From an uncultured Nitrospinaceae bacterium (GTDB lineage Bacteria; UBA8248): a DNA stretch of 64,000 nucleotides. Positions 25,245-58,887 of this stretch are shown here, piece by piece. Position numbers and translations under genes: made by a program. The notes below the pieces were generated by a model. The model was given only the letters and a program-made list of their open reading frames with translations. It ran no database searches and was not told the origin of the DNA. Every line of letters starts with the position of its first letter. The first letter of the stretch is position 1. The stretch covers positions 8,756 to 72,755 of the forward strand of contig CAYTSP010000257.1 of the NCBI GenBank assembly GCA_964440505.1, written 5' to 3'.

Positions 25245-27377
25245 TCAGCCATGAACTTCCATCAACTTCTTGACCAAAGCGACATTATGTCGGTGGCCAC
25301 TTCTCTCCGCGGTCACTTTCCCTCGGATAGGACGACCGGTTAAATACAGATCTCCGATAACGTCAAGAATTTTATGTCGAACGAACTCATTGGGAAATCG
25401 CAGTTGGGTATTCACGACACGCGCCTTGTCCACAAGAATCACGTTATCCCAACGACCCCCCTCGGCCAGGCCCATTTTCTCGAGCGACTCCAATTCAGAA
25501 ACAAAACCAAACGTACGAGCGGGTGCGATTTCTTCTTGAAAACTCAATGCATTCTTATGTTCATACAGATAGGATTGTTTTCCAATCGGCTCAGGATAAT
25601 CGATGAGGTATGAAACGGAAAAAGAATCCGCTGGCTCTATACGAATATAACCCTTCTCGTCGGCCGGCTCACCTATTTCGTAAACCTTATCAACCCACAA
25701 GTCTTCGCGTTTTTCCTTTTGATCCTCAATACCCGCTTCTTCAAGCAAGCGGCAAAACTCCACTGCCGAGCCATCCATGACGGGCACTTCCTCGCTCATC
25801 TTGATGAGTATATTGCTAATCTTATAAGCGTGCAGCGCGCTCATCAGATGCTCTATCGTTCGAGCCGTCACAGCTCCATTGCGCAAGTTCGTCGCATGGT
25901 TGGTACCAGCCACAAAATCGACATTCGCCCTCACAATATCGGGGCTCGTCACGCTGCCGAACTGAATCCCGCTCCCCGGCGGCAAGGGTTCAATGATTAA
26001 TCCCGTTTTCAGCCCTGAATGAAGCCCCCGACCATACAACACGACACTCTTCGAAATACTCCTTTGATTTGTTTCCCTAAGCGTCGCTGAAGCCGGTAAT
26101 ACGGGCTCTATATCGTATGCTTTAATTTTTCGCTTTAAAGCAGGCTCCGTCATACCTACAGCCTGGGCGGTTTTGTTGATATCCCAGCCGTGCTCTTCCA
26201 AATGGAAGGACAGGTATTGCCTCTCCCACTGAGTTCTGGCCACATTAAAATTGGATGGGACGTCGTCTTTTGATGTATCCGCCTCGAAATCAGAAACTTC
26301 GCGTATCGCATGCGGCAAGTGGGCGATTCGAATCTCCGATCCTTGTGATGCATATGCTGCTTTGGTCACTGCGCCTTTTAGTTCAGCTATATTGCCCGGC
26401 CAGTCATAGTCTTCTAGTAGTGCAATGACATCCTCTGAAAATTTCTTTTCATGCCTGCCAATTTCAGTGCATTCATTCAAAAACCTGTTGGCTAACGGTA
26501 GAATGTCCTCTTTTCGTTCGCGCAAAGAGGGCAAATTTATTACATCGGCGCCTATTTGGGTGGACAAGGTTCGTACGTAAGTCTTGTCTTTCGGGGTCCC
26601 CATGTGATCAAGGGACACCACCAAACGTATTGAATCCTTTGCATACCCAAGGAATCGAGCGAGAAACCTCTCACGCTCCGCCATGGGCAACTGCTCCAGA
26701 CCATCAAGATATACCGTCCCTTGAAAGGTATCGGGCACCAGCCGCTCCAGTGTCTCTTCCCATTCGTTTACCTCAGGCACCGGAAACAGAGAGCGGCAAT
26801 GAACTGGCCTAAAGCCTTCTTCTTCCTTGATACCATTCTTATGAATCACCTTTGCAATAAAACGCTTGCCGGTTCCCCTTTCGCCCGCAATCAACAAGGG
26901 GCCAATATCTTTCGCCGCCCTCCTGATAGCTCTTCGAACCCTTTGAATACTCTTGCTGGCGCCGTCAAGCATCACATCAACGACATCATTTACCTTGAAT
27001 TCCTTGGCCCTTCGCGACTGAACAGCGGAATCGACTATACGCAAAACCGCATCAATAGACAGAGGTTTTTCAATAAAATTGAAAGCGCCCAGCTTGGTTG
27101 CGGCCACCGCGGTTTCAATATTACCGTGACCAGACATCACAACGACTTCGATATCCGCGTTCGACTCCTTCACCGCTTGCAAAGTCTTGATTCCATCAAT
27201 GCCCGGCATCCACACATCAACCAAAACCACATCAGGAGTTTCAGTTCGAACCAACTGAAGGGCAGTTTCTCCAGACTCCGCCCGCTCTACACGATACCCT
27301 TCATCGTGCAAAACATCTTCCAGGCTGGCGAGTATCTCACGCTCATCATCGACGATGAGGACATGTCCCTTATCCAA
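25245..27377 (-). CDS. Fusion protein: NtrX/NtrC-family response regulator (receiver, degenerate AAA+, Fis-type HTH) joined in-frame to UDP-3-O-acyl-N-acetylglucosamine deacetylase LpxC
   Basis: A single stop-free 710-codon frame on the minus strand. Residues 1-120 form a receiver (DDE pocket, phospho-Asp in VLVDVWMPGIDG, conserved S/T and K). Residues about 135-345 are sigma-54-activator-like AAA+ (GERGTGK Walker A, RERKEDI, YDWPGN), then HTH TQWERQYLSFHLEEHGWDINKTAQAVGMTEPALKRKIK. Residues 435-710 align along the full length of LpxC (NQRSISKSVVLYGRGLHSG, TIEHLM, MDGSA, ARTFGF, FVRHKILDVIGDL, RSGH). Starts with TTG and overlaps the ntrY stop by 8 nt. Confidence 0.8.
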   Translation of the reverse strand: MDKGHVLIVDDEREILASLEDVLHDEGYRVERAESGETALQLVRTETPDVVLVDVWMPGIDGIKTLQAVKESNADIEVVVMSGHGNIETAVAATKLGAFNFIEKPLSIDAVLRIVDSAVQSRRAKEFKVNDVVDVMLDGASKSIQRVRRAIRRAAKDIGPLLIAGERGTGKRFIAKVIHKNGIKEEEGFRPVHCRSLFPVPEVNEWEETLERLVPDTFQGTVYLDGLEQLPMAERERFLARFLGYAKDSIRLVVSLDHMGTPKDKTYVRTLSTQIGADVINLPSLRERKEDILPLANRFLNECTEIGRHEKKFSEDVIALLEDYDWPGNIAELKGAVTKAAYASQGSEIRIAHLPHAIREVSDFEADTSKDDVPSNFNVARTQWERQYLSFHLEEHGWDINKTAQAVGMTEPALKRKIKAYDIEPVLPASATLRETNQRSISKSVVLYGRGLHSGLKTGLIIEPLPPGSGIQFGSVTSPDIVRANVDFVAGTNHATNLRNGAVTARTIEHLMSALHAYKISNILIKMSEEVPVMDGSAVEFCRLLEEAGIEDQKEKREDLWVDKVYEIGEPADEKGYIRIEPADSFSVSYLIDYPEPIGKQSYLYEHKNALSFQEEIAPARTFGFVSELESLEKMGLAEGGRWDNVILVDKARVVNTQLRFPNEFVRHKILDVIGDLYLTGRPIRGKVTAERSGHRHNVALVKKLMEVHG
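25248..26075 (-). other. lpxC: LpxC deacetylase domain of the fusion CDS (boundaries approximate)
   Basis: Aligns from the residue that corresponds to E. coli LpxC Met1 (here a GAA codon at 26075..26073) to the C-terminus. Zinc/catalytic residues E78-H79 (TIEHLM), H238/D242/D246 (FVRHKILDVIGDL) and H265 (RSGHRHN) are all present. Confidence 0.8.
26076..27377 (-). other. NtrX-like regulator module of the fusion CDS: receiver (about 27377..27018), AAA+ (about 26975..26342), Fis-type HTH (about 26246..26118)
   Basis: Domain order and motifs as listed for the parent CDS. The AAA+ part lacks GAFTGA and carries DG instead of DE in Walker B. Confidence 0.7.
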
Positions 27378-29634
27378 TGGAAGCCGTCCTTTCCTTTTCA
27401 GGCGTGATGTCCACAGCAGGCGCCAATGGCAACGTTACGCGAAAAACAGAACCCGCTGGATAGTTATCTCGCACGCCTATCGTTCCATTATGGTCCGCCA
27501 CAATGCGATGACATATAGCTAAACCCAACCCCGAGCCTCTGTCTTTCGTAGAAAAGTAAGGAGAGAATATATGGCCTTTCACGTCTTCCGATATACCCTG
27601 CCCCTGGTCGGCAACTTCAACGACTATCATATTTCTGTCCGCATCACTCCATGCCTGCAAATCTATCTCGCCTTCGACCTCTTGGGATTCAAAGGCATTT
27701 TCCAGCAAATTGATGAACACTCGCTGCAACTGTTCGGGATCCGCCATGACCGCTGCATTCCCTGCAGTGATTTGAATGGAAAATTCCACATTCCCTTTTC
27801 TGCCACGATATAAATTCGCAACATCTTCAATGAGGGGAGCAAACCCGCAAAGCCTCAACCTCGGCTCCGGCATTCGTGCAAACCGGCTGAATTCATTCAC
27901 CATTTCAATCAGACTCGTTACTTGATTGATAATAGTATCCGTACAAGATTCAAATACTTCCGCAAAATCATAGGCTTCACTTTCAAATTTTCTTCTCATT
28001 CTCTGAGCAGAGAGCTGAATCGGTGTAAGCGGATTTTTGATCTCATGCGCGATGCCACGAGCCACTTCTTGCCATGCGGCCACTTTTTGAGCCCGTATCA
28101 AAGCCGTCAAATCATCAAACACAATGACTGCTCCGAGCCTGCCACCATCCGCGCTTTTGAGCAGGGTCAAGCTCGCGCGTAGCGTCAGTACGCGGCCATC
28201 AATCATGATCTCCACTTGCTCCGAAGCGCTTTGGTGTTTTCGATCCCTCATTGAACGCATCAACTGACGGACGGGTTCGAGATGCGCGCTTTCGAAAACC
28301 TCGCTGAACATTCGACCCACGGCATCTTGAGGCTCAACGCTCAGCAACTCCCCAGCCGCTTTGTTGAGAATAGTAACGCGACCCCGGCGATTGATGGATA
28401 TCACACCTGCTCCGATATTTTCGAGCATCGCTTCCATATATCTGCGCCTTCTGTCGATCTCCAGGTTGGAGCGGCGCAGGGTTTCAGAAGACTCTTCGAT
28501 TTTCTCTTTGTTGGCCAATAATTCTTCTGTCATGCTGTTGAATGTGTTGACCAAAATACCTACCTCGCCATCTGCTTGCGCATCTACGCGATGTTCGAGA
28601 TCGCCATCCGACACCGCCCTTGTGGCTTCCGCCAGTTTTTCGATGGGAACCGTGATCCCGCGCGCAAGGTAGAAGCCAAACCATATGGCGGCAAACAAAA
28701 TCAGCAAGGTGACCACCAAAAAAGTGATGATGTAGTTGGCTTTAATTGGGTTCTTGGACAATTCCAACTCTTTATAATTCACGAAAGAATCGGAGATGCC
28801 CCTGATCCTCTCCACGAGCCTATCTGAAACATATTTGGATACGACGATAAACCCCACCACTTTTTTTTGAATCTTCAGAGGCGCCACGCCATAGATGACA
28901 TCGCCTTTTTCCCAGTTCTCTATACTCGAGCGCGACTCCCCATCAATCACCTGATCCACGTATCCCACCAGTGGTGAGAATGTTGCGGCTCGTTCCAACC
29001 CCGGACGATTGACCGATACGATCTCTTTTCGACCCCTATCGTAGAGTTGGATGAAGTCTACCCCCAAGCTCTTTCTCTCGGACTCTAATTTTTGTTCAAT
29101 CGCCTTGGGGTTTGCTAATATGTCGGAGTGCGACTTCTCCAACATAAGCGCTACTCTACTCGCACTGAACAGCGCGTTTCGCTCCACCTCCCGATAATAC
29201 GTTTGAGCCACCTCGAACGACCCTTTGAGCGCTCTCTCCACATTCATGTTGAACAAGGCGTTAAAGCTTTGGTTTATCAGGCCGCTGGCCACCACAAAAA
29301 GAGCCACTACAGGGATGAGCGTAAATCCGACAAAAGCCAACACGAGCTTTAATTGCAAGCGCGAACGGCCGGCGCCCGTTCTCCCCTCGTAGTAAAGACG
29401 CACCAAGTGCTTTGCCACCAAAAGAATAGCCACCATGAGCAGAATGATGCTCAGGTTCACAAGCGAAAATACAACGACGTTGTTAAGCAGGGGGACTCCC
29501 GGTTCAAGCTCCTTGAAGTAAATCCAGGCCGCGAACGAAAGAGTCGCTATGATGATCAAGGCGATGAAAGAGCGCAGAAGCGTTCTTCGTCGACGGGAAG
29601 AGATTTCCAGATTTTTCAGTCGCTTTGGATACAA
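27370..29634 (-). CDS. NtrY-like sensor histidine kinase (N-terminal multi-TM region, HAMP, PAS, HisKA, HATPase)
   Basis: 754 aa. H-box ARGIAHEIKNPLTPIQLSAQRM is the NtrY-type signature. N, G1 and G2 ATP-lid motifs. Several N-terminal TM helices. Confidence 0.85.
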   Translation of the reverse strand: MYPKRLKNLEISSRRRRTLLRSFIALIIIATLSFAAWIYFKELEPGVPLLNNVVVFSLVNLSIILLMVAILLVAKHLVRLYYEGRTGAGRSRLQLKLVLAFVGFTLIPVVALFVVASGLINQSFNALFNMNVERALKGSFEVAQTYYREVERNALFSASRVALMLEKSHSDILANPKAIEQKLESERKSLGVDFIQLYDRGRKEIVSVNRPGLERAATFSPLVGYVDQVIDGESRSSIENWEKGDVIYGVAPLKIQKKVVGFIVVSKYVSDRLVERIRGISDSFVNYKELELSKNPIKANYIITFLVVTLLILFAAIWFGFYLARGITVPIEKLAEATRAVSDGDLEHRVDAQADGEVGILVNTFNSMTEELLANKEKIEESSETLRRSNLEIDRRRRYMEAMLENIGAGVISINRRGRVTILNKAAGELLSVEPQDAVGRMFSEVFESAHLEPVRQLMRSMRDRKHQSASEQVEIMIDGRVLTLRASLTLLKSADGGRLGAVIVFDDLTALIRAQKVAAWQEVARGIAHEIKNPLTPIQLSAQRMRRKFESEAYDFAEVFESCTDTIINQVTSLIEMVNEFSRFARMPEPRLRLCGFAPLIEDVANLYRGRKGNVEFSIQITAGNAAVMADPEQLQRVFINLLENAFESQEVEGEIDLQAWSDADRNMIVVEVADQGQGISEDVKGHIFSPYFSTKDRGSGLGLAICHRIVADHNGTIGVRDNYPAGSVFRVTLPLAPAVDITPEKERTASIG

Positions 29635-49547: not shown

Positions 49548-51746
49548 TTATTTCGTCGCCCTTAATTGAATTTTCGTGAAATCCGCGTTTGCCGAAAACA
49601 ACGCGCCCACGCCGGCCATCAGCGCAAGACGGTTTTTCCGCAAGGCGGGGTCTTCGTCCATCACCATCACCTCATCGAAAAAATCATCCACCACGGGCCG
49701 GATTTCCGCGATGGCGGCGTTCACGGAAACATAGGCCTCCTCCAGGGAGGCGGCGTCCTCCGCCCGGACGTTCGCCAACGCGTCTTTCACCGACTTTGAA
49801 ACAGCACCCAGGGATGCGTTCAGCCTTTTCTCGGCGTCATCAACAAGAAGATTCTCATCCAGGCTGTCCGCCGCATCATGTTCACCGCCCTGATTCGCCT
49901 GGCGGATAATGTTGCTCACCCGCTTGAAGGTCGTCGTGAGCGGCTCGAAGGTCTCTTCGCTGGACGCCAACCGCTCCAGTGCGCGGAGCCGCGCCCGCGC
50001 GTCTATCACATCGCGCCAGCCCGAGTCGTCTCCCGCCGCCAGCACCGCTTCCACCAAGTCGCCTCGCGCGCCGCCGCGAGAGAGATAGGCGGACACCCGA
50101 TTGCGAATAAAAGCCAGAATTCTTTCAGCCACCTCGGCGGCATCACCTTTGAACTTATCCTGCAAAGGTTCGCTCGCGATCTCCACCCATTCGGACAACG
50201 AGACCCTGAAACAATTATCCTCCAGGATGAGCAGAATCGCGTTGGCCGCGCGTCTGAGCGCGTAAGGATCCTCCGAACCACTGGGCAGATAGCCCAGGCC
50301 CACCATGCCGACGATGGTGTCCATGCGGTCGGCAAGCCCCACGATGGCGCCTGCACGGTCTCCCGGCAGGTCGTCCCCCTCGCCCCTGGGGAGATAATGC
50401 TCATATATGGCGCGGGATACCGCCTCACTCCTGCCCTCGCGCTCGGCATAGCGCTGCCCCATGACGCCCTGAAGCTCGGGGAACTCATACACCATGCCGC
50501 TCGTTAAATCCGCCTTGCACAGAGACGCCGCCTCGTCCACGGTTTTCGCCAGCGCGGCATCGCCCGGCGCGAGTTTCCCGCACAACCATGCGCCCAGGCG
50601 TCTGAAGCGCTCCACCTTGTCCCAACTCGTGCCCAGCTTCGGGTGATAGACCACACCCGCTAATTCTTCCGCCATGTCGACGAGGGGCGTTTCGAGGTCC
50701 TGGCGCCAATAAAAATCCGCGTCCTCAAGTCTCGCGCGCACAACCCGCTCATAACCCTTCCGCACCACGCTCATATCGTTCGCCCGCGTGTTGCTCACGC
50801 CGATGAAGCAGGGAATGAGCCGCTCTCCACCCTTTTCCCTGAGCGCAAAACACCTCTGGTGCACCTCCAGGGTGGAGATGATGACCTCCTCGGGCAGGTC
50901 CAAAAATTTATCATCAAACCCGCACGCCACCGGAAACGGCCACTCCACCAGATGCGCCACCTTCTCCACCAGGCGCTCCACGGCCTCCGCATCCGCCGCG
51001 GGCTCGCCTCCCTGGGACTCGGCTGCTTCCGAGACACACGCGCGCACCATGGGTATGCGTCCGCCCCCGCTTCCGTCATCGACAAGAGGCTCTACATTAT
51101 TCTCATGCAATACTTGAATATAATCCTGAAAACTATTGATATTTAATTTATTATTCCCATGAAATCTATGGCCATATGTGACTGATCCGAAAGGCGGAAG
51201 CGATGCGTCCCCATTCGATGCAGGGCCATCGACACTCTCCTGACCATAGACTGCCAGAACCCATTGCACGGGCCGGACAAACGAGAACTTACCGGCTCCC
51301 CAGCGCATGGATTTAGGAGACGGCAAATCCCGGATGAGTTTCGTCAGCAAAGGCCCCAGAACGGCTTTGGTCTCATCGCCCAAGTCTTCTCTAAAATACA
51401 TCAGGCGCGCCCCCTTGGGCGTATCCACTTGTTTGAGCTCGGACACATCCGCCCCGTTCGTCCTGGCGAAGCCGAGAGCCGCTTTCGTCGGATTCCCATC
51501 CTCGTCGAATGCGTTCTTAACGGGAGGGCCCAGGATTTCCTCCTGGAGTGGTTTCTGGCGCTCCGCCAAATCGGCCACATGCAGGACGAGCCGTCTCGGT
51601 GTCCCGAATGTTTCCAAGCCCCCGGAAGCGAGGCGCGCTTCGTCAAACGCCGCCTCCGACCGCTCCTTCAGTGCGGCGAGCATCCCCGGCATATAGATGG
51701 AGGGGATCTCCTCGGTCCCGATTTCAAAAAGCAGCTCTTTGCCCAA
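49548..51746 (-). CDS. glyS: Glycine--tRNA ligase beta subunit
   Basis: The conserved N-terminus starts at LLFEIGTEEIPS. The ORF track's upstream extension overlaps glyQ. A likely TTG start near 51746 has AAGGGG 8 nt upstream. Confidence 0.86.
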   Translation of the reverse strand: MGKELLFEIGTEEIPSIYMPGMLAALKERSEAAFDEARLASGGLETFGTPRRLVLHVADLAERQKPLQEEILGPPVKNAFDEDGNPTKAALGFARTNGADVSELKQVDTPKGARLMYFREDLGDETKAVLGPLLTKLIRDLPSPKSMRWGAGKFSFVRPVQWVLAVYGQESVDGPASNGDASLPPFGSVTYGHRFHGNNKLNINSFQDYIQVLHENNVEPLVDDGSGGGRIPMVRACVSEAAESQGGEPAADAEAVERLVEKVAHLVEWPFPVACGFDDKFLDLPEEVIISTLEVHQRCFALREKGGERLIPCFIGVSNTRANDMSVVRKGYERVVRARLEDADFYWRQDLETPLVDMAEELAGVVYHPKLGTSWDKVERFRRLGAWLCGKLAPGDAALAKTVDEAASLCKADLTSGMVYEFPELQGVMGQRYAEREGRSEAVSRAIYEHYLPRGEGDDLPGDRAGAIVGLADRMDTIVGMVGLGYLPSGSEDPYALRRAANAILLILEDNCFRVSLSEWVEIASEPLQDKFKGDAAEVAERILAFIRNRVSAYLSRGGARGDLVEAVLAAGDDSGWRDVIDARARLRALERLASSEETFEPLTTTFKRVSNIIRQANQGGEHDAADSLDENLLVDDAEKRLNASLGAVSKSVKDALANVRAEDAASLEEAYVSVNAAIAEIRPVVDDFFDEVMVMDEDPALRKNRLALMAGVGALFSANADFTKIQLRATK

Positions 51747-51757
51747 ACCGAAACCCC

Positions 51758-52735
51758 TTAACCCTTGCCCACTTTCGGCTTCGCCTCTTCTGCATCGTAT
51801 TGCGCGGCGTATAGGGCGAGATGTTCTTCGCGCTTCGCCTCGTCTCTGATGAGAGGGAACCCGGCCTCGTAGCGGGATTTCAGATAACTCTCTGCGCATG
51901 CGCGCGCCATTTTTCTGATTCTGCCGATGTAGCGCGCCCGCTCACTCACGCTGATGGCGCCCCGCGCATCCAGAAGGTTGAAAGTGTGCGAGCACTTGAG
52001 CGCGTGATCGTAGGCGGGAAACGTGAGGCCCTTCTCCACGAGACGCAAACCTTCGGCCTCGTATTTATCAAAAATATCGAAATGGATTTTAACGTCCGCC
52101 TCCTCGAAATTATAATGGCTGAATTCCACTTCCGTCTGATGGTGCACGTCGGCGTACCGGACGATTCCGCCATCGGTATCTCGCGCCCAGATGAGGTCGT
52201 ACACGCTTTCCACCCCTTGCAGGTACATGGCGATGCGCTCGAGCCCGTAGGTCAATTCCGCGGACACCATCTCCAAATCCAGCCCGCCGGCCTGCTGGAA
52301 ATACGTGAACTGCGTGACCTCCATGCCGTCCAGCCAAACCTCCCAGCCCAGACCCCACGCGCCCAGGTTCGGGGATTCCCAGTCGTCCTCGACGAAGCGA
52401 ATGTCGTGATCGAGCGGGTCGATTCCCAGATCCACGAGGCTTTCGAGATACTGCTCCTGCACGTCGATGGGCGAGGGCTTCAAAATCACCTGGTATTGAT
52501 AGTAGTGCTGCAGCCTGTTCGGGTTCTCCCCGTAGCGGCCGTCCGTCGGCCTTCTGCTGGGCTCGACGTAGGCCACCTTCCAGGGTTCGGGGCCGAGGGC
52601 GCGCAGAAAAGTGGCCGGGTTCATGGTGCCCGCGCCCACCTCGATGTCGTATGGCTGCTGGATGACGCATCCTTTTCGAGACCAGTACTTCTCCAGCCCC
52701 ATAATCACTTCCTGAAACGTCAAGGCATCGCTCAA
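51758..52735 (-). CDS. glyQ: Glycine--tRNA ligase alpha subunit
   Basis: [15 protein letters not shown] and class II motifs. 325 aa. Confidence 0.95.
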
Positions 52736-53940
52736 CCGATAAACTCCTTATGCAGGACGCGCACCGAATCCTCGGAGTCGGCCCGGCGAACCACAACGGA
52801 TATGGAAATCTCGGAAGTCGAGATCATCATGATGTTGATGCGGCTTCTCGCCAAAGCGGAGAAAACGCGCGCCGCCACGCCGGCCTGGCTTTTCATGCCC
52901 ACGCCCACGACGGAGACTTTCGCGATGTCGTCATCGCGGGAGATGGTGGCTCCGCCGAAGGATTCATTCGATTCCACCATGATTTGTTCCGCTTGCTGCG
53001 CCATGTCGCTGTTCACCGTGATGGAGATGTCGGTCAGGCTGTTTTCGCTCACGTTCTGGACGATCATATCCACCATGATGGATTTTTCGGCCAACCGGCC
53101 GAACAAGGCGGCGGCGATTCCGGGCCTGTCGGGCACGGCGCTTATCGTGAGTTTCGATTGTTTCGAATCGCAACTCACGCCGCGAACGGCGGGCGACTCG
53201 ATTCCCGTCGACTCTGGAATGATCAATGTTCCCTCTCCCTCATCAAACGCGGAGCGGACGACGAGTGGAAGGTCATACTTCGCCGCCAGATCCACAGAGC
53301 GCGCCTGCAGCACTTTCGCGCCCAGGGACGCGAGTTCCATCATCTCCTCGAACGATATCTGCTCCATGCGATTCGCGTCAGGGACAATACGCGGGTCGGC
53401 CGTGTACACCCCGTCCACATCGGTATAAATCTCGCAGCGATCCGCTTCAAGCGCCGCGGCCAACGCCACGGCGGTGAGGTCGGAGCCTCCACGCCCCAGC
53501 GTCGTCTCCTCGTCGAACTCATCGACTCCCTGAAATCCCGCGGCGACGACCACCTTTCCCCCGTTGAGTTCCTTGAGAATCCTCGCGGGGCGGATAGAGC
53601 GCACGCGGGCCCGGGTATGGGCGCCCTCTGTCAGAATGCCGGCCTGCCCGCCCGTTAAGGATATCGCCGGGATTCCGGCCGCATCGAGGGCGATGGCCAG
53701 AAGAGAACTCGCAATGCGCTCCCCGGAGGTGAGCAGCAAGTCCATCTCCCGCCCTACAGGTTGAGGCGAAAGCGCATGTGCGAAGCGAATCAGCTTATCG
53801 GTCTCTCCCGCCATCGCGCTCACCACGACGATGATCCGCTCCCAGGAACGCTTCGCCGCCGACACCCGCTTCACCACGCCGCGGATTTTATCCAGGTTCG
53901 CGACCGAGGTGCCGCCGAATTTTTTTACGACCAGGCTCAT
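52732..53940 (-). CDS. lysC: Aspartate kinase (monofunctional, with two C-terminal ACT domains)
   Basis: N-terminus [11 protein letters not shown] and the amino-acid-kinase fold. 402 aa. Confidence 0.92.
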
Positions 53941-53949
53941 TTTATCCCA

Positions 53950-55200
53950 TCATCCGCTGAACAACCGTTTCTTCACCGCGTCGAGTGAATAGACGCGCCC
54001 CGCTCGAGCCAGTTCTTCGGAAAAACCGACAGCCGGTATTTTCCGCCTCCCCTCGCCGCCGCGAATCATCTCCCAGAGGGCGGCCAACCCGCCAGGGCGC
54101 TTGGGCGGCGTTAAATTCTCTCCATCGAAATCCGCCATGGCGAACGGAACGGCATCGGTGATCCATTCCTGGGATTCCACGCTGAACCCATGATCCACCA
54201 TCACGAGGATGCGGCAAGGCTGGCCCAGTTTTTCCAACAATGGCGACACACGCGCGGCATCGAATCTCTCGATGGCCCCGATTTTCTCCTCGGGTTCGCG
54301 CCACGGGGATATACTGTCCACATCCTCGAGCAAGAAGACGAAATCATGACTCGAAAGCGCCTCGCTCACCCTGGCGGACACCTCCTCCCCCGGCTCATAT
54401 ACATCCGCGCCCCCTAGTTTGGCAAAGCCCTTTGCGAGTTGTGAGTCGGTTATCAGCGCCGAATCCCTGCCTCCCGCCTTTTCGGACATTCTCCCCACCT
54501 CTGCGTGGAGGCCGCCGCCCCAGAGCCACACGGAGTTCGCGGCGAACATACGGGTTTGCGCCTTTTCCCTCAAACCAGCATGAGTGGAAAGCACCATCTG
54601 GGAATCGTTGACGAAATGAACGAAACGCCGCGCCGCCTCCGCCACCGGCATGTGCTCCCCGATGGGCATTCCGGTAATGGCATGCGGGGGCGAGAAGCCA
54701 CGAAAAGATTCCGGTGAAAGCGGCGCGCCCGAACGCCGATAATAGAGAAGCGCCTCGCAGCCGCCCAGGGGTTCGAAGCGGAAAGATTCGCCCTCATCGG
54801 GCGGCATGTGGCGCTCCAGATAAGCGATGAGTTCGCGGTTCTCCTCGTCCGTGACGCCGAAGCCCGTCGGGTCCAGCATGACGACGCTCGTCGCGCCGGG
54901 CTTCAGGCACACGAAATTGAGCCGGAAGACCGCCTCTCCAGCTTCGGGGAGAACATCCGCTGCGGCGGCCAGCATCAGGCCGGAAGACAGTGCGCCTGAG
55001 GCGCCAAAAAAATTTTTGAGAAATCCATCCAGGGAGGGATGCGCATCATCAGACGCAGGTGACCACGCACCGGAAAACCCCGAACCCGCCAGGCGATCCA
55101 GCATGGGCGTTTGCGCTCTTTGCAGGGGTGTTTCGCCTCCAAAGTCCGCCACCGGCCTGTCGGCGAGACCGCGCGCGAGAACCACAAGGATTTTTCGCAT
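53950..55200 (-). CDS. Cofactor-independent phosphoglycerate-mutase-family protein (ApgM-like); candidate non-orthologous homoserine kinase
   Basis: Alkaline-phosphatase-superfamily/ApgM pattern, about 416 aa from the ATG at 55200 (MRKILVV). The ORF track extends to 55431 with non-homologous sequence. Located exactly between lysC and hom. Confidence 0.68.
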   Translation of the reverse strand: MRKILVVLARGLADRPVADFGGETPLQRAQTPMLDRLAGSGFSGAWSPASDDAHPSLDGFLKNFFGASGALSSGLMLAAAADVLPEAGEAVFRLNFVCLKPGATSVVMLDPTGFGVTDEENRELIAYLERHMPPDEGESFRFEPLGGCEALLYYRRSGAPLSPESFRGFSPPHAITGMPIGEHMPVAEAARRFVHFVNDSQMVLSTHAGLREKAQTRMFAANSVWLWGGGLHAEVGRMSEKAGGRDSALITDSQLAKGFAKLGGADVYEPGEEVSARVSEALSSHDFVFLLEDVDSISPWREPEEKIGAIERFDAARVSPLLEKLGQPCRILVMVDHGFSVESQEWITDAVPFAMADFDGENLTPPKRPGGLAALWEMIRGGEGRRKIPAVGFSEELARAGRVYSLDAVKKRLFSG

Positions 55201-55222: not shown

Positions 55223-56551
55223 TCACATGAAAGCCATGCCGTCCGATTCCACGCGAACGAGCGCGTAAGCGGGCTGCACCACGTCGAGGCGGGAAATCTC
55301 CTCGAGCGCGTTTTGCATGTTCTCTTCCGTCGCCTTGTGGGTGAGCAACACCAGGCGGGCATAGCCGTCCTCGTCGGCGCGGCCCTTCTGGACGACGGTT
55401 TCGAGGCTGATGTCGTGTTCGCCGAAAACACCGGAGATGCGGCTCAATACACCCGGCTTGTCCAAAGCCGCGAAGCGAACGTAGAAACGCGTCGAAATTT
55501 CCCGCGGGGGCAGGATGTCGAGGCGCGCGCGCTGGTCCGGCAAAAAAGCGGCGGCGGGGATCCGCGATTCGCCCCCGTTCTTCAGCCACCTCGCCACTTC
55601 GATGATGTCGCCCACCACGGCGGAGGCCGTAGCTTCCGAACCTGCGCCCTTGCCGATGAATACCTGTGGCCCGGCATTCACCCCCGAGACGGCCACTGCA
55701 TTGTAGACCCCTCCCACCTGCGAGAGAGGATGACTTTCGGGAAGCATCGTCGGGTGAACGCGGATATCGAGTTTCCCCTCCCTCTCCTGCGCCATGGCGA
55801 TGAGCTTGATCCGGTAGCCGAGCTCCTTGGCGATATCGATGTCGACGGACGTGATGTTGCGAATCCCTTCGGTGTGGTAATCCTCGAGATCCACGGGCGT
55901 TCCATAGGCCAGGTTCGCCAGAATCGCTATCTTGTGTGACGCATCGACGCCGTCGATATCGAAAGCCGGATCGGCCTCCGCGTAGCCGAGTTCCTGCGCA
56001 CGCCTCAGCGTTTCGCCGAAATCCGCGCCCATCTCCGTCATGCAGCTCAGAATGTAGTTGCACGTACCGTTCAGGATACCCGCGAGCCTCTCGATTTTGT
56101 CCGCAGCGAAAGCCTCGCGCAGGTTTCTGACTATCGGAATGCCGCCCGCAACGGACGCCTCGAAACCCAGCGGGCAACCCGCCTTCTCCGCAGCGGCGAA
56201 TATCTCCTCCCCGTGAACGGCAAGCACCGCCTTGTTCGCGGTCACGACCGGCTTGTTATTCTCGATCGCCCGCAGGATGTGGCGCCTGGCGTCATCCGTC
56301 CCGCCGATAAGTTCCGCGACCACGTGCACCTCGGGCGCGTCGATGACGGCCTCGAAATCCGTGCCCATATTCTCGGGCGCCACCCCGCGCGCCACCTTTT
56401 TCTTTGTGAAAACGCTGCGGTCCGCGATTCTGGAGACGCACACCTCTACGCCGAGGCGCCTTTTGATCAACTCCCGCTGCTCGTCGAGCAGATTCACGAC
56501 CCCGCTTCCGACGGTGCCCAAGCCCAATATGCCGACGCAAATTTTCTTCAT
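55223..56551 (-). CDS. hom: Homoserine dehydrogenase
   Basis: NAD-binding N-terminus GLGTVGSGV, catalytic domain, C-terminal ACT domain. 442 aa. Confidence 0.92.
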   Translation of the reverse strand: MKKICVGILGLGTVGSGVVNLLDEQRELIKRRLGVEVCVSRIADRSVFTKKKVARGVAPENMGTDFEAVIDAPEVHVVAELIGGTDDARRHILRAIENNKPVVTANKAVLAVHGEEIFAAAEKAGCPLGFEASVAGGIPIVRNLREAFAADKIERLAGILNGTCNYILSCMTEMGADFGETLRRAQELGYAEADPAFDIDGVDASHKIAILANLAYGTPVDLEDYHTEGIRNITSVDIDIAKELGYRIKLIAMAQEREGKLDIRVHPTMLPESHPLSQVGGVYNAVAVSGVNAGPQVFIGKGAGSEATASAVVGDIIEVARWLKNGGESRIPAAAFLPDQRARLDILPPREISTRFYVRFAALDKPGVLSRISGVFGEHDISLETVVQKGRADEDGYARLVLLTHKATEENMQNALEEISRLDVVQPAYALVRVESDGMAFM

Positions 56552-56577: not shown

Positions 56578-57780
56578 CTAGCTCGCCGCCTGCTCGGGCG
56601 CTTTCTCCTGAAACAGGGGACGCAAGTTTCTGAGCGCCTGCCGCGTGCGGTGTTCATTCTCCACGAGCGCGAAGCGCACGTGCTCATCGCCCAACTCGCC
56701 GAAACCAACGCCGGGCGAGACGGCCACCTCGGCTTCGGTCAACAGGAATTTGGAAAACTCCAGAGAACCCATCTCCCGAAAGGCATGCGGAATCTCCGCC
56801 CATACGAACATCGTGCCCCTGGGTTTTTGAACGGGCCAGCCGATTCTCTCCAACCCGTTGCACAGCGCGTCGCGGCGATTCTGGTAAATCTGCCGAATCT
56901 CCTCGACGCACTCCTGGGAACCGTTGAGCGCGATGATCGAGGCGATCTGGATGGGCTGGAACGCGCCGTAATCGAGATAGCTCTTGATGCGCCTGAGCGC
57001 ACCGATGATCTCCCGGTTCCCCACGGCGAAACCCATCCGCCACCCCGGCATGGAGTAGCTCTTGGAGAGCGAGAAAAATTCCACGCTCACATCCTTGGCG
57101 CCCTTCACCTGCAAAATGCTGGGCGGCTCATAGCCATCGAAGCCCAGGTCGGCATAGGCGAAATCATGAACCACGATGAGGTTGTATTCTTTAGCGAAGG
57201 CGACGACTTTTTCGAAAAAATCCAGATCCACGCAAACCGTGGTGGGGTTGTGCGGGAAACTCAGGACGAGGATTTTCGGCCGCGGCCATATCGGGCGGAT
57301 GATGTCGGTCATGTTTTCGAAGAAATCATCTCCCTGAGACAGCGGTACGTGAACCACGTTGCCGTTCGCCAGGACCATGGCATATGTGTGGATGGGGTAT
57401 GTGGGACTCGGCACCATGACCAAATCGCCCGGGTTCGTGATGGCCAAAGCCAGATGGGAGAGCCCCTCCTTCACCCCGATGGTGACGATGGCCTCCTCTT
57501 CGGGGTCGATATTCACGTCATAGCGGCGACCGTACCAACCCGCGATGGCCGCCCTCAGCCGGGTGATGCCGCGCGAAGCGCTGTAGCGATGATTCCTGGG
57601 GTTCGTCGCCGCCTCCACCAGTTTTTCCACGATGTGCGGCGGTGTGGCGAGATCGGGGTTCCCCATACCGAAGTCGATGATGTCGTCGCCCCGGCGGCGG
57701 GCCTCGATCTTCAACTCGTCAACGCTCGCAAAAACATAGGGCGGCAGGCGGGTAATGCGTTGAAACTCATACATGTTCAA
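56578..57780 (-). CDS. Class I pyridoxal-phosphate aminotransferase (alanine/aspartate aminotransferase family)
   Basis: The PLP-lysine region [15 protein letters not shown] and the fold-type I pattern. 400 aa. Confidence 0.85.
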
Positions 57781-57786
57781 AAATCC

Positions 57787-58770
57787 TCAACTGACCGGCA
57801 GGGATATCAGGTGACGGGAGGGAGCCGGAACGTTCCGGCCCGAGCCATCGGCCGTCATAAAGGCACGACCCTCGGGATCTCCCTTTAATTCTTCCTCCCC
57901 CAACCCCTGGGAGGCGTGCAGGGCTTCCTCCGCATTGTAGGAACTTCTCACGAAAGGACCCGCGAACACGTGCGCGAAACCCCTTGCCTCGCCCGCAAGG
58001 CGGTAGCGCGCATACACGTCCGGGTGAACGTATTCGCGAACGGGAATCGCCTTTTTCCTGGGTGAGAGATACTGGCCAATCGTCATGATCCGGCAATCGA
58101 CCCTCGCATCTCTCAAATCATCCATCAGGGAGAGTACGTCCTCTTCGGTTTCACCCATGCCGACCATGACGCCGCTTTTCGTCACCATATCCGGATCAAT
58201 CTCTCGCGCCATGCCGATGACGCGCAGGGAGCGTTCGTAATCCCCGTTCGGGCGCGTGCTCCTGAACAGCCTCTTCACCGTCTCGATGTTATGGTTGAAA
58301 ACATCGGGCGCTGCGCGGACCACTCGCTCGACCGCGGTGAAATCGCCCATGAAATCACTCACCAGAACCTCCACCGTGGCCTCGGGCAGCAATCCGCGAA
58401 TCGCCTCAATCGTCGCAACCACGTGTCCGGCCGCGCCATCGGGCAAATCATCGCGATTCACCATCGTGACGACCACGTGCTTGAGACCCAAATGCTTCGC
58501 GGCCTCGGCCACATGCAGCGGCTCGCTCGCGTCCAAAGGCCCAGGCGCGCCCTTTGTGACGGCGCAATAGCCGCAAGTTCTCGTACAGACGTCTCCACCA
58601 ATCATGAAGGTGGCCGTGTTGCGGGAAAAACACTCGAACAAGTTCGGGCAACGGGCTTCCTCGCACACGGTGTGCAGATGCTTGTTGCGCATCAGCGCCT
58701 TGACTTCGTGCGATCGGCTCGGACTCGGCAACCGCTTTACGAGCCAGGGAGGAAAGCGTCGAGAAGCCAT
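57787..58770 (-). CDS. lipA: Lipoyl synthase
   Basis: Auxiliary-cluster CxxxxCxxxxxC (CEEARCPNLFEC) and radical-SAM CxxxCxxC (CTRTCGYC). 327 aa. Confidence 0.93.
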   Translation of the reverse strand: MASRRFPPWLVKRLPSPSRSHEVKALMRNKHLHTVCEEARCPNLFECFSRNTATFMIGGDVCTRTCGYCAVTKGAPGPLDASEPLHVAEAAKHLGLKHVVVTMVNRDDLPDGAAGHVVATIEAIRGLLPEATVEVLVSDFMGDFTAVERVVRAAPDVFNHNIETVKRLFRSTRPNGDYERSLRVIGMAREIDPDMVTKSGVMVGMGETEEDVLSLMDDLRDARVDCRIMTIGQYLSPRKKAIPVREYVHPDVYARYRLAGEARGFAHVFAGPFVRSSYNAEEALHASQGLGEEELKGDPEGRAFMTADGSGRNVPAPSRHLISLPVS

Positions 58771-58887
58771 CGAATTGCCTCCAGTCCCGGGAATCGGGAG
58801 GCTGCATCTTAGGAATGCAAAGCACAGGTGTCAAGCTTAAAGCCGTTTGTAGCAAATAAACCACAAAACATTGTATTCAAATATATT

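Follow-up and report, generated by a model that had tools for sequence, protein, structure and literature searches.

Can a phosphoglycerate-mutase-like gene set among the genes of the aspartate pathway supply the homoserine kinase of its host? The question is raised by a 64,000-nucleotide stretch of DNA from an uncultured Nitrospinaceae bacterium (GenBank assembly GCA_964440505.1, contig CAYTSP010000257.1, positions 8,756 to 72,755). We call this whole stretch the window and count positions from its first letter. The gene, here named X, lies between those for homoserine dehydrogenase (hom) and aspartate kinase (lysC):

53950..55200 including the stop codon, minus strand: X, an ApgM/HomK-like protein of 416 amino acids (aa) with most catalytic residues lost

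An earlier note on this DNA had named X a probable homoserine kinase, of a family rarely validated. Homoserine kinases resembling phosphoglycerate mutase (PGM) are, however, already established under the names TIGR02535, ThrB2 (PMC9026213) and HomK, and the hypothesis is therefore a known idea. Its remark on validation is out of date, as both BT2402 of Bacteroides thetaiotaomicron and the diverged DET_RS08350 rescue an Escherichia coli thrB::kan mutant (GapMind 2026 preprint). The same preprint defines HomK by a catalytic Ser, the metal ligands and a Glu (E299 in BT2402) in place of the Lys of true PGMs, accepts diverged members on these defining residues together with proximity to hom, and leaves thrB unaccounted for in about 8% of prototrophs. 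X itself is probably not an ordinary homoserine kinase. As judged from alignments, the clade to which it belongs is a phylum-wide, selected and catalytically degenerate offshoot of HomK.

Family, fold and catalytic residues

The placing of X in the cofactor-independent PGM (iPGM)/alkaline-phosphatase superfamily holds. Two Pfam families are matched above their gathering thresholds (PF10143 PhosphMutase, 48.8 against 21.5; PF01676 Metalloenzyme, 40.8 against 24.3), and the archaeal iPGM structures 2zkt and 3kd8 are matched both by sequence (phmmer E 3e-16) and by fold. An AlphaFold2 (AF2) model of X, made with a 32-sequence alignment, has a pLDDT of 87.6 and a pTM of 0.87. In Foldseek it matched only iPGM and phosphopentomutase-type folds, with 3kd8 and 2zkt as the best solved structures (E about 1e-22, TM 0.55-0.73). 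Among NCBIfam families the top match is TIGR00306 (apgM), at 181.9 bits with a cutoff of 320. NF003242 gives 151.3 bits (cutoff 426), and TIGR02535, the 'proposed homoserine kinase', gives 134.5 bits against a cutoff of 446.3, about 310 bits short; the Tectomicrobia orthologue P0023 reaches 180.3 bits against the same model. The public name of orthologues P0027 and P0029 at the Joint Genome Institute (JGI) is iPGM.

Ligand numbering follows P0030 (D9, D299, H303, D342, H343 and H352), with the nucleophile S56 as in BT2402. Residues were mapped by motif because some preprint ligand numbers for BT2402 do not fit the canonical motif spacing: in Appendix 3 of bioRxiv 10.1101/2024.10.14.618325, D274, H278 and H325 misfit, whereas E299 and D346/H347 fit. 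The corresponding parts of X are as follows:

55159..55179, minus strand: LARGLAD (residues 8-14), with R10 (55171-55173) where the canonical DGMAD has the Asp that is the first metal ligand
55027..55041, minus strand: HPSLD (residues 54-58), a remnant of the nucleophile motif PGSD, with Ser56 possibly retained
54508..54978, minus strand: cap domain (PhosphMutase, PF10143), residues ~75-231, the most conserved part of the clade
54301..54327, minus strand: EDVDSISPW (residues 292-300), a remnant of hvEa.DEaGH, with Glu292 and Asp295 kept and Pro299 in place of His
54163..54198, minus strand: VDHG...W346 (residues 335-346), with DH kept in the window copy and Trp346 in place of the last ligand His

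At the six metal-ligand positions other than the nucleophile, X thus carries R10, D295, P299, D336, H337 and W346, and three of the six are replaced. The first ligand, D9, is absent from all 32 full-length orthologues, which have Arg, Gly, Ser or Val instead. A Ser is present at the nucleophile motif in 21 of 22 close relatives, yet it is replaced by Ala, Gly, Leu or Pro in nine of ten deep orthologues (L027 keeps it), and in X Ser56 aligns with a shift of one residue, which leaves its register ambiguous; in the AF2 model it caps the N-terminal end of helix 57-65. AF2 confidence is lowest at residues 295-298, the C-terminal region aside. The His of the DH motif varies to Cys, Ala, Gly or Arg among orthologues, Tectomicrobia-type orthologues have Gly or Ala at D299 and Gly at H343, and even the window's own subclade (68-99% identity) tolerates D295A (L011), D336A (L017) and H337C/A. 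Conversely, L028 and L029 have kept D299, H303, the DH pair and H352 and have lost D9 and the Ser. The putative specificity position, as placed by motif, is Glu292 in X and Glu, Gln, His, Pro, Arg or Asp among orthologues.

The losses extend beyond the ligands. Of 33 columns that are at least 95% conserved in canonical members, 20 are lost in the clade and 13 kept clade-wide, the latter being mainly Gly, Pro, Trp, Ala and Thr, plus D314, D336 and E395. Cap residues R75, E79, N97 and H167 are among those lost, together with a conserved 10-residue active-site loop (GATG..DTNY..K) that is deleted; on the substrate side, X lacks R75, E79 and R144. The former catalytic loops (residues 41-80 and 281-300) are now some of the most variable stretches of the clade, and only the C-terminal ~35 residues have lower conservation. 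The call of a probable homoserine kinase is not sustained by these data, given the TIGR02535 score, the substitutions R10, P299 and W346, the missing loop, and a Ser and ligands that vary among orthologues.

Orthologues, selection and descent

Scanning one genome per GTDB species yielded 33 loci, from Nitrospinota, Tectomicrobia or unclassified metagenome-assembled genomes. X is intact and full-length (408-435 aa) in 31 species-level genomes and partial at contig ends in two more. The order argS-SPOR-lipA-aminotransferase-hom-X-lysC-glyQ-glyS-ppdK is found in all 33 loci as far as each contig reaches, L029 alone having no aminotransferase match between lipA and hom; hom-X-lysC is kept in the 31 loci that reach hom, and X-lysC in the two that are cut at X. 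For X, the ratio of non-synonymous to synonymous substitution rates (dN/dS) falls at 0.10-0.36. The genes for hom, lysC and the aminotransferase have 0.01-0.15 in the majority of pairs, with two deep pairs reaching at most 0.27, and across most comparisons the value for X is about double theirs or higher. X outpaces these three genes in every comparison and its other neighbours in most, and in the deepest comparisons it is 38-46% identical where the neighbours are 67-82% identical. Shared synteny and dN/dS show that X is a real gene and not a chance open reading frame (ORF), and that it is under purifying selection across the phylum.

There are 47 positions that are at least 90% conserved in the clade and less than 30% in canonical HomK, most of them in the cap domain and a C-terminal insertion. 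One cluster in the cap comprises F96, C98, P101, S105-V107, G113, G115 and D118; two further segments are specific to the clade:

54595..54630, minus strand: helix motif RRFVHFVNDSQM (residues 191-202)
54052..54141, minus strand: C-terminal insertion AMADFDGENLTPPKRPGGLAALWEMIRGGE (residues 354-383; A354..AD..PP..GL372)

The helix is 95-100% conserved in the clade except at position 196, and only S200, which is Ser in all 32 aligned sequences, is common with canonical HomK. In a set of 1.84 billion representative proteins the clade forms about four full-length clusters at 50% identity, after which scores drop from more than 500 to about 210 bits.

The closest catalytically intact relatives, P0030 to P0037, leave little doubt about the parent family. 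Seven of the eight score 470-559 bits against TIGR02535, with P0033 just below the cutoff at 425.6, and their signature is DGMAD (D9), GSD (S56), hvEaaDEaGH (E296, D299, H303), DH (D342, H343) and H352. More widely, 95 of the best hits of a scan of the same representatives with the clade profile share D9, D13, S/T56, E296, D299, H303, D342, H343 and H352, and the specificity position in them is almost always Glu, with only three Lys. An evolutionary tie to the PGM-like homoserine kinases, part of the original proposal, is thereby borne out, as the nearest intact relatives pass TIGR02535 and carry the HomK-type Glu. The same is true of the proposal that a PGM-like gene recurs in a threonine-pathway arrangement elsewhere: in Clostridia, in Deferribacteraceae and on several metagenome contigs, canonical HomKs with the full signature adjoin hom, thrC or lysC, in the order aminotransferase-hom-(thrC)-homK-(lysC).

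An outgroup from the same locus brings the ancestry closer. Locus L085:303-4967 (GCA_046760845.1) reads lipA-aminotransferase-hom-P0046, with P0046 cut by the contig end. P0046 is the best match outside the clade, and it falls at the base of the X clade in a neighbour-joining tree drawn without support values. All of its metal ligands and its nucleophile Ser are intact. Its specificity position is occupied by Ala, neither Glu nor Lys, and there are already hints of the cap motifs of the clade. Together with the hom-adjacent canonical HomKs, this outgroup leads us to conclude that the X clade arose from a functional hom-linked HomK, or ThrB2, and, as read from the sequences, that its catalytic centre was lost afterwards.

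Gene order and the competing readings

X belongs to a string of closely spaced minus-strand genes, lipA-aminotransferase-hom-X-lysC-glyQ-glyS, with these neighbours:

57787..58770, minus strand: lipA (lipoyl synthase), probable first gene of the string, 6 nucleotides (nt) before the aminotransferase
56578..57780, minus strand: class-I aminotransferase (AlaA/DapL-like), 26 nt upstream of hom
55223..56551, minus strand: hom, homoserine dehydrogenase with an ACT domain, its stop 22 nt ahead of the start of X
52732..53940, minus strand: lysC, monofunctional aspartate kinase with ACT domains, its start 9 nt past the stop of X
49548..52735, minus strand: glyQ and glyS, directly downstream of lysC, with a 4-nt overlap of lysC and glyQ
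58806..58834, minus strand: promoter-like TTGACA-17-TAAGAT upstream of lipA, a consensus match only

The name lipA comes from Pfam matches (LIAS_N and Radical_SAM) of the 57%-identical L085 orthologue rather than of the window ORF, and glyQ and glyS are named from their order in the conserved cluster, not from a family-library scan. No convincing terminator was seen in the window sequence between hom, X and lysC. The promoter-like match is the sole good sigma-70-type one positioned to drive lipA-aminotransferase-hom-X-lysC-glyQS. The earlier description of X as a 416-aa ORF wedged between lysC and hom, with an aminotransferase upstream of hom, is correct, but its overlap of about 20 nt with hom is not. 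The hom stop TGA occupies 55225-55223 and, after the gap, X begins with ATG at 55200; the only start that would give an overlap is an in-frame GTG at 55431, which adds an unconserved extension. In all X orthologues M[RQK]K[ILV]L forms the N-terminus, and the start lies 27-40 nt past hom.

The remainder of the window is ordinary. By Pfam, the ~50 window ORFs that were scanned are housekeeping genes such as der, ahcY, metK, hprK, rpoN, lptABC, pdxJ, ftsH, proS, ispG, purM/N, mutS, the rib operon, ppdK, argS, recO and era. One ORF of separate interest, at 25245-27377 on the minus strand, encodes 710 aa in which an NtrX-like response regulator (receiver, sigma-54 interaction and HTH_8 domains, residues 1-421) is fused in frame, with no stop between, to a complete LpxC domain (residues 438-706); an NtrY-like histidine kinase (27370-29634) lies directly upstream.

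The absence of thrB from the lysC-X-hom-aminotransferase cluster is confirmed. E. coli ThrB and ThrC gave no tblastn match in the window or in the compared loci, and the Pfam scan of the ~50 window ORFs turned up neither a homoserine kinase of GHMP, APH or HAD type nor thrC nor any further phosphoglycerate mutase. When the ThrC of L082 (a contig assigned to Nitrospirales from the names of its top hits) served as query, all matches bearing a name were Nitrospirota-type, and no Nitrospinota thrC neighbourhoods were reached. A search of metagenome contigs with the hom profile gave, among the matches listed, only relatives of 41-50% identity, some of them with canonical HomKs linked to hom. Nothing relevant to homoserine or its kinase in Nitrospina or Nitrospinota was found in the literature searched, including the supplements of the GapMind papers and of Kop et al. 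2024. The presence or absence of thrB elsewhere in these genomes is the decisive fact between a pseudoenzyme and an active kinase.

Our tentative preference is for X as a HomK-derived pseudoenzyme, or a neofunctionalised ligand-binding protein, tied to the aspartate pathway. The catalytic residues of its parent are not conserved, forming a mosaic in which the 20 of 33 columns noted above are lost, while dN/dS stays at 0.10-0.36; on these two counts X is, as predicted from its sequence, what is meant by a pseudoenzyme. X would keep the two-domain ApgM fold with the two-metal, phosphoserine-intermediate mechanism no longer workable. The remodelled cap/hinge cleft (R191, R192, H195, N198, D199, S200, Q201 and F96-D118) might still bind an intermediate of the pathway, for example homoserine or O-phosphohomoserine. 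Presumably produced along with Hom and LysC, X could serve one of these two enzymes as a sensor, a scaffold or a partner in regulation, and homoserine would be phosphorylated by the product of a gene elsewhere in the genome. A family linked to recJ that has no catalytic residues provides a precedent for non-catalytic ApgM-like relatives. Several observations weigh against this reading. X occupies exactly the slot expected for the kinase, and neither the window nor ~600 kb of related loci showed a thrB. The window copy retains E292, D295, K306, D336, H337 and perhaps Ser56. The conserved Arg-Arg-x-x-His helix could have formed a new site for catalysis instead of one for binding, and the role as partner or ligand binder is one that we infer. 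Moreover, an operon of Nitrospira (aminotransferase-hom-thrC-ApgM-like gene-lysC-cimA; L084:7452-15220 of Ca. Nitrospira bockiana, and L082), in which only the kinase is missing and the ApgM-like gene is partly degenerate, hints that reduced sites may still work.

Much of this would suit a protein that is still the homoserine phosphotransferase of the cell, a functional analogue of ThrB in the sense of the earlier note, acting through a reduced or remodelled site with at most one metal, or metal-free with the Arg and His of the cap helix to stabilise or accept the phosphoryl group, a possibility that we regard as rather unlikely but take as the main rival. In its favour are the position of X between hom and lysC with spacers of 22 and 9 nt, the lack of thrB in the window and related loci, an ancestry in HomK, with Glu292 where HomK has its specificity residue, the retention in the window subclade of D295, K306, D336, H337 and possibly Ser56, the purifying selection across the phylum, the new invariant polar residues R191, R192, H195, N198, D199, Q201 and C98, the Nitrospira operon that is short of a kinase only, and the prototrophs in which GapMind cannot account for thrB. 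However, the clade as a whole has conserved neither the family's nucleophile nor any of its metal ligands, and the replacements are inconsistent (D9 to Arg, Gly, Ser or Val; Ser to Leu, Ala, Gly or Pro). Close relatives tolerate D295A, D336A and H337C/A, the substrate-side R75, E79 and R144 are gone with the conserved loop, the gene evolves faster than hom, lysC and the aminotransferase everywhere and than other neighbours mostly, and X falls some 310 bits under the TIGR02535 cutoff. A wider form of the idea, doubtful in our estimate, would make the X clade, perhaps with the degenerate Nitrospira proteins and other lysC-linked relatives, the only homoserine phosphotransferases of their hosts, with a metal-poor or metal-free site built from the invariant cap-helix residues R191, R192, H195, N198, D199 and Q201 in place of the binuclear metal/phosphoserine centre of alkaline-phosphatase type. 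Improbable, though worth stating, is an enzyme of new activity that would use a cap site of C98, D118, R191, R192, H195, N198, D199 and Q201 on another intermediate of the aspartate pathway, with no phosphoserine transfer. The concentration of the 47 clade-specific positions in the cap, with an invariant Cys, His, two Arg, Asp, Asn and Gln, would fit, as would a dN/dS well below 1 and the conserved operon linkage to hom and lysC; but this set of residues matches no known chemistry or family, Foldseek yields nothing except iPGM and phosphopentomutase-type folds, and a conserved polar surface is equally expected for binding a ligand or partner. Two further candidates were rejected on residues and dN/dS. 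A functionless, decaying relic is very hard to credit: it would explain the lost catalytic residues and a rate higher than that of hom, lysC, the aminotransferase and mostly also the other neighbours, yet 31 species-level genomes carry an unbroken frame of 408-435 aa, across all sampled divergences and to identities as low as 38%, with dN/dS of 0.10-0.36, 47 newly fixed conserved positions and a confident AF2 model. The scenario that the earlier note had set against its own proposal, a glycolytic or gluconeogenic iPGM, is excluded by the residue losses and has next to no probability left; the top NCBIfam match to apgM, the JGI names of P0027 and P0029 and the fold matches to 2zkt and 3kd8 speak for it, and against it stand a score of 181.9 where the cutoff is 320, an unconserved nucleophile and metal ligands, Glu instead of the PGM Lys at the specificity position, and a setting in amino-acid biosynthesis rather than glycolysis.

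The choice matters for annotation. Family or context would name X 'phosphoglycerate mutase' or 'HomK/ThrB2', and the residues make neither label safe; pathway tools using either would credit Nitrospinota with a full route to threonine. Should X be a pseudoenzyme, it would be a clean and datable case, with an intact outgroup at the same locus, of a biosynthetic enzyme turned non-catalytic inside its own operon, and the enzyme that really phosphorylates homoserine in these widespread marine nitrite oxidisers would still have to be found. If it is active, it would be a new catalytic variant of the alkaline-phosphatase superfamily with a bearing on the ~8% of thrB gaps in prototrophs (GapMind 2026); a metal-poor or metal-free site on the ApgM scaffold, if true, could explain some of those that remain.

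Degenerate relatives and known systems

Loss of the catalytic centre seems, from the alignments, to be recurrent in members of the family linked to lysC or hom. Some 35 of the 150 best profile matches have differently degenerate catalytic signatures (P0047, P0068, P0076, P0086, P0094, P0100 and others). P0047 (L083:49-1257) is degenerate nearly throughout, and the last 4 nt of its gene overlap the beginning of one for aspartate kinase. The Nitrospira protein (P0038, and that of Ca. N. bockiana in L084) is also a partly degenerate HomK-like product encoded directly upstream of lysC, in another phylum of nitrite oxidisers. It retains E9, S56 and D342 and has lost D299, H303 and H352 of the second metal site, with H343 also lost in N. 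bockiana. Its H352 segment has been replaced, and one alignment matches the replacement to the C-terminal insertion of X while a local-pair alignment does not. Unlike X, it has kept the Glu, Ser and Asp of the first metal site and the canonical cap motifs, and lacks the RRFVH.VNDSQM motif; P0038 passes TIGR00306 (340 against 320).

A further family without catalytic residues occurs in Gamma- and Betaproteobacteria (L044-L080, e.g. L048:9779-10825 and L053:3594-4499). Its members have ~300-350 aa and lie almost always directly upstream of recJ, in Woeseiaceae, Thioalkalispiraceae and Competibacterales after aminotransferase-hom-thrC. It is a remote homologue of ApgM/PF10143 (HHalign 99.7% to the X clade and to canonical HomK). 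It shares with the X clade the ANSxWLWGGG and N-[DE]-x-Q-M helix motifs, but is much shorter, with an unrecognisable N-terminal core, an IPDLF-type N-terminus and linkage to recJ rather than lysC. X, with 416 aa, a recognisable ApgM N-terminus, lysC alongside and no recJ nearby, stands outside this family, and a special kinship of the two clades was ruled out, as HHalign gives 195 with the X clade and 199 with canonical HomK. On a Rhodanobacteraceae contig the order carB...X'-recJ matches carB-greA-rpfE-recJ of Xanthomonas (PMC4619228), and on this synteny the recJ-linked family is probably RpfE, mutants of which have regulatory and virulence phenotypes in Xanthomonas (PMC4174818, PMC4619228). 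Public names, which read 'phosphoglycerate mutase' or 'hypothetical', did not confirm the identity. In L128, L130, L141, L143, L150, L151, L163 and other metagenome contigs, aminotransferase-hom is followed by a gap of ~1.1-1.3 kb, blank in tblastn, which recJ follows. An even more divergent representative of the recJ-linked family may be encoded there.

Among characterised enzymes, the nearest to X are the HomK/ThrB2 proteins BT2402 and DET_RS08350, which have the same two-domain ApgM fold, the neighbourhood of hom, thrC or lysC, and a Glu that X shares. They differ in having the full set of Ser and metal ligands and in complementing thrB, whereas X has R10, P299 and W346, lacks the loop, and belongs to a clade in which every one of these positions varies. 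The archaeal ApgM proteins (2zkt, 3kd8/3idd; TIGR00306) are the best solved-structure matches and have the same domain order, but in them the specificity residue is Lys (as in the FKPTDAAGH of 2zkt) and, by the definition of the family, the metal and Ser site is complete, in contrast to the Glu and the degenerate site of X. For the role that we tentatively prefer, that of a retained pseudoenzyme, the closest parallel lies outside the superfamily. Regulatory pseudoenzymes of the HisZ type have lost catalysis and kept ligand binding, and serve a biosynthetic enzyme encoded nearby. HisZ offers a working model for X by analogy, its fold and pathway being unrelated, with Hom or LysC as the putative interaction partner.

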